DNA from: Escherichia phage EcF-vB
DNA: 64,000 nt
Sequence record: PV683228.1
Strand: one strand, 5' to 3'
The translations under genes and the position numbers were made by a program. Positions 58,756 through 59,396 of this stretch are shown in pieces; within the stretch, counting starts at the first letter, position 1; every line of letters begins with the position of its first letter. The notes under the pieces are model-generated. The model ran no database searches. It saw only the letters and a program-made list of their open reading frames with translations, and was not told where the DNA came from.

Positions 58756-58756
<1 letters not shown>

Positions 58757-59396
58757 TACATTTTTCCTGCTCTTCTAAGTTCGTTGTAAGCAATTTCCTC
58801 TTTATACGACCTCTGAATTTCAAGAAATTGTCTCAATGATAATAAATCAGAGAATGTCATAGCAAAGAGTTGGTCAAGTGTTTCTTTACACCCTTCCATA
58901 CCATAAATAGCAAGCACAAATTTCATCTCGTCTGCTTCTTCATAGGTTGACTCTACAGCAGCATCAGTTAGTGGTGTCTGTAGAGTGTTACCCATGTTTA
59001 CTGAGAAGTTAGGCTTTTGAAAATGCTTGCTTCGAAAAAACTTCCGAAGTTTGCCTCCAGCGCAAATGCTAAGTAATCAATAAATTCACCGTAGTTTGCT
59101 TGGAAGTATGTATCAATATTGAGTGGGAAGTCATCAACAGTTGCCCCTTGAAATAGCAGGGTAGCTATTTCTTCTAGGTTAATTTCTTCAATTCTGTCAA
59201 AACAAGCTTCAACAAGTTCTTTGAATGGAACCGTCGGAGCTTCCTTCTTACCCTTATCCGTCAGACTTGACAGCATCTGTGCAAAAGTTGGAACAACAAT
59301 TTTACCCAATTTCATAGACATCTTAATACCATCTCTTGCCCCAAGCAGAACGATATTTACTTTCTTACCATTAATTACTCTAGATTCTGTTTTCAT
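58756..59396 (-). CDS. tail assembly chaperone, predicted -1 frameshift fusion product (GT-like)
   Basis: Downstream ORF 58756..58995 is in the -1 frame and open back through the slippery site. Confidence 0.5.
58998..59396 (-). CDS. tail assembly chaperone (G-like)
   Basis: 132 aa ORF between tube and tape measure; contains a slippery heptamer near its 3' end. Confidence 0.6.
   Translation of the reverse strand: MKTESRVINGKKVNIVLLGARDGIKMSMKLGKIVVPTFAQMLSSLTDKGKKEAPTVPFKELVEACFDRIEEINLEEIATLLFQGATVDDFPLNIDTYFQANYGEFIDYLAFALEANFGSFFEASIFKSLTSQ
59034..59040 (-). promoter_or_regulatory. slippery heptanucleotide U UUU UUC (programmed -1 frameshift site)
   Basis: Plus-strand gaaaaaa; 0-frame codons AGU UUU UUC, 12 codons before the G stop. 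Confidence 0.55.

Follow-up and report, generated by a model that had tools for sequence, protein, structure and literature searches.

All features of the locus are read from the minus strand of the window, the whole 64,000-nt stretch of DNA that we analysed (Table 1). In the direction of transcription, the genes follow one another in the order sheath, tube, G, T and tape measure protein, which is the gene order of the G/GT arrangement. The sequence-only reading had described, between the tube and tape measure genes, two open reading frames (ORFs) that lie in the 0 and −1 frames and are separated by 2 nt. The sequence and the ORF list bear out this description, and the protein family matches of the flanking genes place the pair in the position that had been given for it. 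The tube gene is a probable assignment; in Erwinia phage Harbringer, the region homologous to it carries a "tail tube protein" feature.

Table 1. Features of the G/GT locus. Positions are those of the window.
Feature	Coordinates	Strand	Evidence or description
Tail sheath gene	59931-61283	minus	phrog_205, DUF3383
Probable tail tube gene, 148 aa	59469-59915	minus	phrog_280; PF11681 (DUF3277-type); the sheath gene precedes it
Intrinsic terminator in the interval between the tube gene and G	59429-59458	minus	13-pair stem followed by a T-run
Complete G/GT unit, predicted GT fusion of 213 aa	58756-59396	minus	
Gene G, tail assembly chaperone, zero-frame product of 132 aa	58998-59396	minus	ORF list, PF21822, phrog_1613
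Internal Shine-Dalgarno-like GGAGG, candidate stimulator	59054-59058	minus	13 nt upstream of the heptamer
Slippery heptamer U_UUU_UUC	59034-59040	minus	codons AGU UUU UUC (S119 F120 F121)
−1 frame extension (T segment), 92 codons plus stop	58756-59034	minus	the 79-aa ORF is its 3' part
Putative dual-coding overlap, G codons 122-132 plus stop	58998-59033	minus	frozen synonymous sites
Hairpin	58941-58996	minus	perfect 9-bp stem ACTCTACAG/CTGTAGAGT; pairs the ATG of the 79-aa ORF
T ORF, 79 aa, −1 frame	58756-58995	minus	ATG 2 nt past the G stop
Tape measure protein gene, 748 aa	56510-58756	minus	phrog_4036, E = 0; PF20155 (TMP_3)

The first ORF of the pair, G, ends in a TAA stop codon at 59000-58998, and the length of 132 aa that had been given for its zero-frame product is correct. 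G scored 72.0 bits against the Pfam family PF21822 (Phage_TAC_15; cutoff, 22; E = 8e-20), with the match extending over residues 9 to 124 of 132. This score exceeds the gathering threshold of the family and makes G a member of Phage_TAC_15. G also matches phrog_1613, a tail assembly chaperone family (E = 2e-47), and the 79-aa T ORF matches phrog_4963, which is likewise labelled tail assembly chaperone (E = 6e-55). When G was compared by sequence with solved structures, no match was found at E values up to 1. At the other end of the unit, the stop codon of T (58758-58756) overlaps the ATG of the tape measure gene as TAATG (58754-58758, minus strand), and this overlap suggests that translation of the tape measure gene is coupled to reading of the GT frame.

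An intrinsic terminator was identified in the interval between the tube gene and G. In the Mordin record, a terminator is annotated at the matching position, and the records of KhF2 and AYO145A contain a terminator feature within their match to our query. This strong terminator would leave G/GT and the tape measure gene less transcribed than the sheath and tube genes.

Near the 3' end of G, the sequence TTTTTTC (59040-59034) forms an X_XXY_YYZ heptamer in register with the zero frame. Downstream of it, the zero frame contains 11 sense codons and then the TAA. From 59076 onward, the −1 frame meets no stop codon before the one at 58758-58756, and the two frames are open together from 59076 to 58998. 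The sequence-only reading had reported a slippery U UUU UUC in this position, with the −1 frame open from there, and both statements stand. The fusion junction is also as it had been written (...NFGSFF-RSKHFQKPNFSVNMGNTLQ...) and agrees with the −1 translation. The length of the fusion is a different matter: it had been put at roughly 205 aa, and the 121 codons of G together with the 92 codons of the −1 frame give 213 aa. U_UUU_UUC is the sole in-frame XXXYYYZ heptamer in G, and a search of the overlap for alternative slippery sites yielded none in register.

A heptamer by itself means little, because 54 in-frame XXXYYYZ heptamers occur in the 17,736 codons of the window ORFs of at least 100 aa. 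What sets this site apart is the frame that follows it. After 53 of the 54 heptamers, the −1 frame shuts within 0 to 28 codons. Only the heptamer at 59040-59034 is followed by a −1 frame that runs far past the zero-frame stop, by 80 codons compared with 7 for the next best. The heptamer itself, U_UU.U_UU.C, belongs to the H_HH.U_UU.Y class, which is among the most efficient in E. coli, supports >0.1% shifting even when no stimulator is present, and is employed by IS elements (PMC4066793).

When 1 kb of sequence centred on this region was used as a query, 299 phage records matched, 211 of them at 95-99% identity. These close matches are nearly all Felixounavirus phages of Escherichia, Salmonella and Shigella, and Felix O1 itself is 96.1% identical over the query; the window is Felixounavirus DNA. 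Three of the matching records name unrelated hosts and contain DNA that resembles the Felix O1-like region. Campylobacter phage A132 (MG065664) and Staphylococcus phage SA1 (GU169904) match the entire 1 kb at 96.6-97.5% identity, and these two records are probably contaminated or mislabelled. In Listeria phage LPML1 (OK283618), the match is limited to a 143-nt stretch at 74% identity.

For comparison across relatives, we used 53 related loci, 10 from GenBank and 43 from IMG/VR. The GenBank loci were those of the Felixounavirus phages Felix O1, HK3, Seyj1-1 and Mushroom, together with SUSP2 (Suspvirus), Mordin (Mooglevirus), phiEa21-4, SPARTY and Hena2 (Kolesnikvirus), and Arno18. The IMG/VR loci were retrieved with an alignment of six G proteins, and one of the two IMG/VR peptide seeds was NF[GS]SFFE. 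Because this seed contains SFFE, conservation of the S-F-F residues is partly built into the set; the choice of codons is unaffected.

All 53 loci have NNT TTT TTC at the S-F-F residues and an open −1 frame of 79 to 106 codons, and the claim of a conserved G/GT arrangement holds across this set. At 60% amino acid identity, the loci form 11 clusters, and identity to the G protein of the window falls to 27-36% in the most distant ones. For the serine that contributes to the heptamer, nine clusters use the codon AGT and the other two use TCT. Because both codons end in T, the first base of the heptamer survives a codon switch that is not trivial. Given S-F-F and the codon usage of this phage, T_TTT_TTY would be expected with a frequency of about 0.33 per lineage, and the exact TTTTTTC with a frequency of 0.15. 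The 11 out of 11 clusters observed are therefore far beyond expectation.

Conservation extends to both frames downstream of the heptamer. Alignment of 14 divergent −1-frame segments revealed a core that reads roughly F-x-L-x-I-Y...C-K-E-x-L-x-x-L-x-x-M-T-F-x-D-L-L-x-L-x-E-x-L, and this conserved motif argues for protein-level selection on the −1 frame. The tape measure protein ORF begins where the −1 frame ends in six of the seven distant loci tested. The zero-frame tail past the heptamer, EASIFKSLTSQ, is also conserved among relatives.

We examined synonymous diversity in 32 distinct G genes with 74-100% amino acid identity. Diversity was 0.025 at codons 122-132, compared with 0.20 at codons 1-108. 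The six lowest 11-codon windows of G are exactly those that span codons 117-132, and 5 of 20,000 random samples were as low as the overlap. When counted in the T frame, synonymous diversity was 0.0 in the overlap codons, compared with 0.16 elsewhere. Codons 122-132 lie after the heptamer, yet upstream of the ATG of the T ORF. If T were begun at its own ATG, it would impose no constraint on these codons, whereas reading of both frames would. The collapse of synonymous variation between the heptamer and the G stop therefore points to dual coding, as judged from sequence comparison, although the frozen sites could in principle reflect an RNA element instead.

The same codons bear on the alternative that G and T are separate genes, with the 79-aa T translated by termination-reinitiation at the ATG at 58995 and the heptamer incidental to the S-F-F residues. 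An ATG 2 nt past the G stop has a suitable geometry for termination-reinitiation, and the majority of GenBank records, as well as PHROG 4963, have T as a 79-aa protein of its own. Some myoviruses are, moreover, reported to have a chaperone pair without frameshifting (Vladimirov et al. 2022, cited in PMC10885494). However, the ATG at 58995 lacks a Shine-Dalgarno sequence in the preceding 20 nt and is not conserved among relatives, in all of which the −1 frame extends back to the heptamer without a stop. Kolesnikvirus loci have no start codon in the −1 frame near the position where the T ORF begins. A Felixounavirus contig (L014; IMGVR_UViG_3300045988_004167) has ATA at the position homologous to 58993-58995, and its heptamer and −1 frame are intact despite the change. 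In the window, the ATG is also buried by a hairpin (Table 1), which could suppress independent initiation of T; this hairpin is conserved only partly beyond Felixounavirus. The frozen synonymous sites lie upstream of the ATG, where a separate T would leave G unconstrained, and the codon-level invariance of the heptamer in 11 clusters exceeds what the amino acids explain. We consider it improbable that G and T are expressed purely as separate genes. Independent translation of T could accompany frameshifting in Felixounavirus, but it fails to explain the pattern of conservation.

Transcriptional slippage is less probable still. In this case, RNA polymerase would insert an extra U in the T6 run, giving an mRNA that encodes the S-F-F-R... 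fusion. The site is a homopolymer, and one added U would, by reasoning from the sequence, give a protein identical to that made by a −1 slip. However, bacterial RNA polymerase would need a run longer than six residues to slip efficiently, and none of the 53 related loci has a T7 run. The register of the run with respect to the zero frame is invariant, as is its final C, and the Shine-Dalgarno-like element that is frequently found at a frameshift-stimulating distance (described below) would lack a purpose. That a homopolymer sequencing error or a recent mutation split a single 213-aa gene is barely conceivable: homopolymer runs are common sites of indel errors and the T6 run is a site of this type, but such an artefact is excluded because the run and the two-frame layout recur unchanged in all 53 loci, which come from many genera and were assembled independently, and because the zero-frame tail is conserved as well.

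The locus has the anatomy, the conservation and the dual-coding signature of a G/GT site. From these features we infer, with a probability of about 90%, that a programmed −1 ribosomal frameshift at U_UUU_UUC yields both G and the GT fusion. The majority of ribosomes on G would terminate at the TAA and produce the 132-aa chaperone. A minority would slip one base back, with the P-site and A-site tRNA-Phe re-pairing from UUU UUC to UUU UUU. For these ribosomes the next codon would be CGA, and 92 codons more would complete a 213-aa GT that ends at the start of the tape measure gene. The frequency of the slip would set a fixed, low GT:G ratio. By analogy with lambda gpG/gpGT, the tape measure protein may be coated by the G part, while the T part may recruit the tube protein. 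By the same analogy, neither G nor GT would be found in the virion (PMC5009743). The slip itself probably relies on the heptamer alone, possibly helped, as in dnaX, by pairing of an upstream GGAGG with 16S rRNA, and a downstream hairpin would play no part in it.

A stimulatory RNA structure downstream of the heptamer had been envisaged in the sequence-only reading. In the Felix O1 group, neither single-sequence nor consensus folds revealed a stable conserved structure 5-9 nt after the heptamer. Folding of the 70 nt past the heptamer, performed for 34 distinct relatives, gave about −7 kcal/mol in this group. A consensus fold built on six sequences, which represent four genera, had an energy of −5.5 kcal/mol with almost no covariation, and the 126 nt from the heptamer had a folding z-score of only −1.8. 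The sole solid hairpin is the one that pairs the ATG of the T ORF (58996-58941). It begins 38 nt downstream of the heptamer, which is too far for a canonical stimulator. Strong hairpins, of about −27 kcal/mol, that start 6 nt past the same heptamer were seen only in L052 and L053, two distant loci; these lie at about positions 1681-1740 and 1654-1713, respectively, of their IMG/VR contigs. In the 36 nt upstream of the heptamer, which we folded in 15 lineages, no conserved stem was found. A scan had marked a hairpin with a T-run at 59060-59044 as a terminator or attenuator; with z-scores near 0, we regard it as a chance match.

Upstream of the heptamer lies an internal Shine-Dalgarno-like GGAGG. 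Its duplex with the 3' end of 16S rRNA has a predicted energy of −9.3 kcal/mol, which ranks it among the strongest 0.1% of the 3,010 in-frame positions scored across the structural genes of this phage. Stimulatory elements of this type have been defined as GGAG, GAGG or GGNGG located 6-17 nt upstream (PMC4066793), and GGAGG with its 13-nt spacer fits this definition. An equivalent element is present in 9 of 15 representative lineages and occurs in two codon contexts, L-E-A/V encoded with TGGAGG and I/L-K-E encoded with AAGGAG. It is absent from Kolesnikvirus and from L039, L050, L051 and L053. By analogy with dnaX, a stimulator upstream of the heptamer, with GGAGG as the candidate, is a reasonable hypothesis for this phage.

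Taken across the family, these observations allow a more tentative reading, which we judge somewhat less likely than not: an invariant U_UUU_UUC may be paired with interchangeable stimulators within one chaperone family. In Felix O1-like phages, and in a number of further lineages, the stimulator would be an internal Shine-Dalgarno-like GGAGG or AAGGAG 11-13 nt upstream, after the manner of dnaX; L052 and L053 would use the hairpin 6 nt downstream; and other lineages would use neither. If so, the GT:G ratio would be tuned in each lineage through different RNA elements, and the family would offer a natural series for the evolution of frameshift efficiency.

The slippery heptamer of phage lambda is G_GGA_AAG, whereas that of the phage studied here is U_UUU_UUC. 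The two systems also differ in that the present phage is a contractile-tailed myovirus, in which the upstream tube gene follows a sheath gene, and in that Pfam places the protein encoded here in Phage_TAC_15. In both, two overlapping ORFs directly precede the tape measure gene, and the first ORF has an X_XXY_YYZ sequence close to its end. A −1 slip there, which is predicted for the present phage, yields an abundant short product and a rare, C-terminally extended fusion. A strong RNA stimulator is not evident in either. The lambda gpG and gpGT chaperones have been described in detail (Levin, Hendrix and Casjens 1993; Xu, Hendrix and Duda 2004, 2013, 2014; summarised in PMC5009743).

The dnaX system, which produces tau and gamma, shares with this site a heptamer for a −1 slip, which is predicted here, and an internal Shine-Dalgarno-like sequence upstream of it. 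In dnaX this sequence lies about 10-14 nt away and acts as a stimulator; here GGAGG, 13 nt away, is the candidate for such a role. In contrast, dnaX has a strong downstream hairpin, of which there is no conserved counterpart here, and its shifted product is the shorter one, whereas GT would be the longer one. Phage P2 is a myovirus with a −1 shift at a U-rich heptamer, TTTTTTG, between its tube and tape measure genes. P2 and the present phage are alike in each of these respects, the −1 shift being a prediction for the latter. Their protein families differ, and so do their heptamers, which end in G in P2 and in C here. The P2 frameshift, in the tail gene E/E+E', was reportedly described by Christie and colleagues in 2002.

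The closest precedents are existing annotations of related phages. In Salmonella phage Mushroom (KP143762), a joined "tape measure chaperone" coding sequence (CDS), CPT_Mushroom69, covers the homologous 641 nt, and in Citrobacter phage Mordin (KT363872), a joined CDS of the same name, Mordin_69, covers the homologous 638 nt. The gene pair, heptamer and span in these two phages are the same as here, and nothing substantive differs. Of the two, Mushroom is a member of the same genus and matches the 1-kb query at 96.6% identity. A tape measure chaperone with a translational frameshift is likewise described in the announcements of the Moogle and Mijalis genomes (PMC4319497, PMC5543628), the second of which cites Xu et al. 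2004. The statements for Mushroom, Mordin, Moogle and Mijalis are annotations by analogy with Xu et al. 2004; our literature search for Felix O1-like phages found no protein, reporter or ribosome profiling evidence. The Felix O1-type frameshift site is real, had, as strong comparative evidence supports, been correctly interpreted in the sequence-only reading, and is both already known and ordinary. The additions made here are small. They are the 213-aa length, the lack of a conserved downstream stimulator and the candidate upstream Shine-Dalgarno-like element, which is testable.

The main importance of the site lies in annotation, and the concept is unchanged, as the conserved G/GT strategy was described in 2004. 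Among the approximately 300 Felix O1-like GenBank records, most either list the chaperones as two genes or omit the second of them. Because ribosomes would enter the second part through a −1 slip, the appropriate annotation is a joined CDS of 213 aa. A correct model of this tail assembly gene is of some engineering value, since Felix O1-like phages serve in typing, biocontrol and therapy of Salmonella and E. coli. The Kolesnikvirus records phiEa21-4, SPARTY and Hena2 should also have a joined CDS. In these three records, about 236 nt that separate the chaperone gene from the tape measure gene carry no annotation, and this stretch corresponds to the −1 frame extension.
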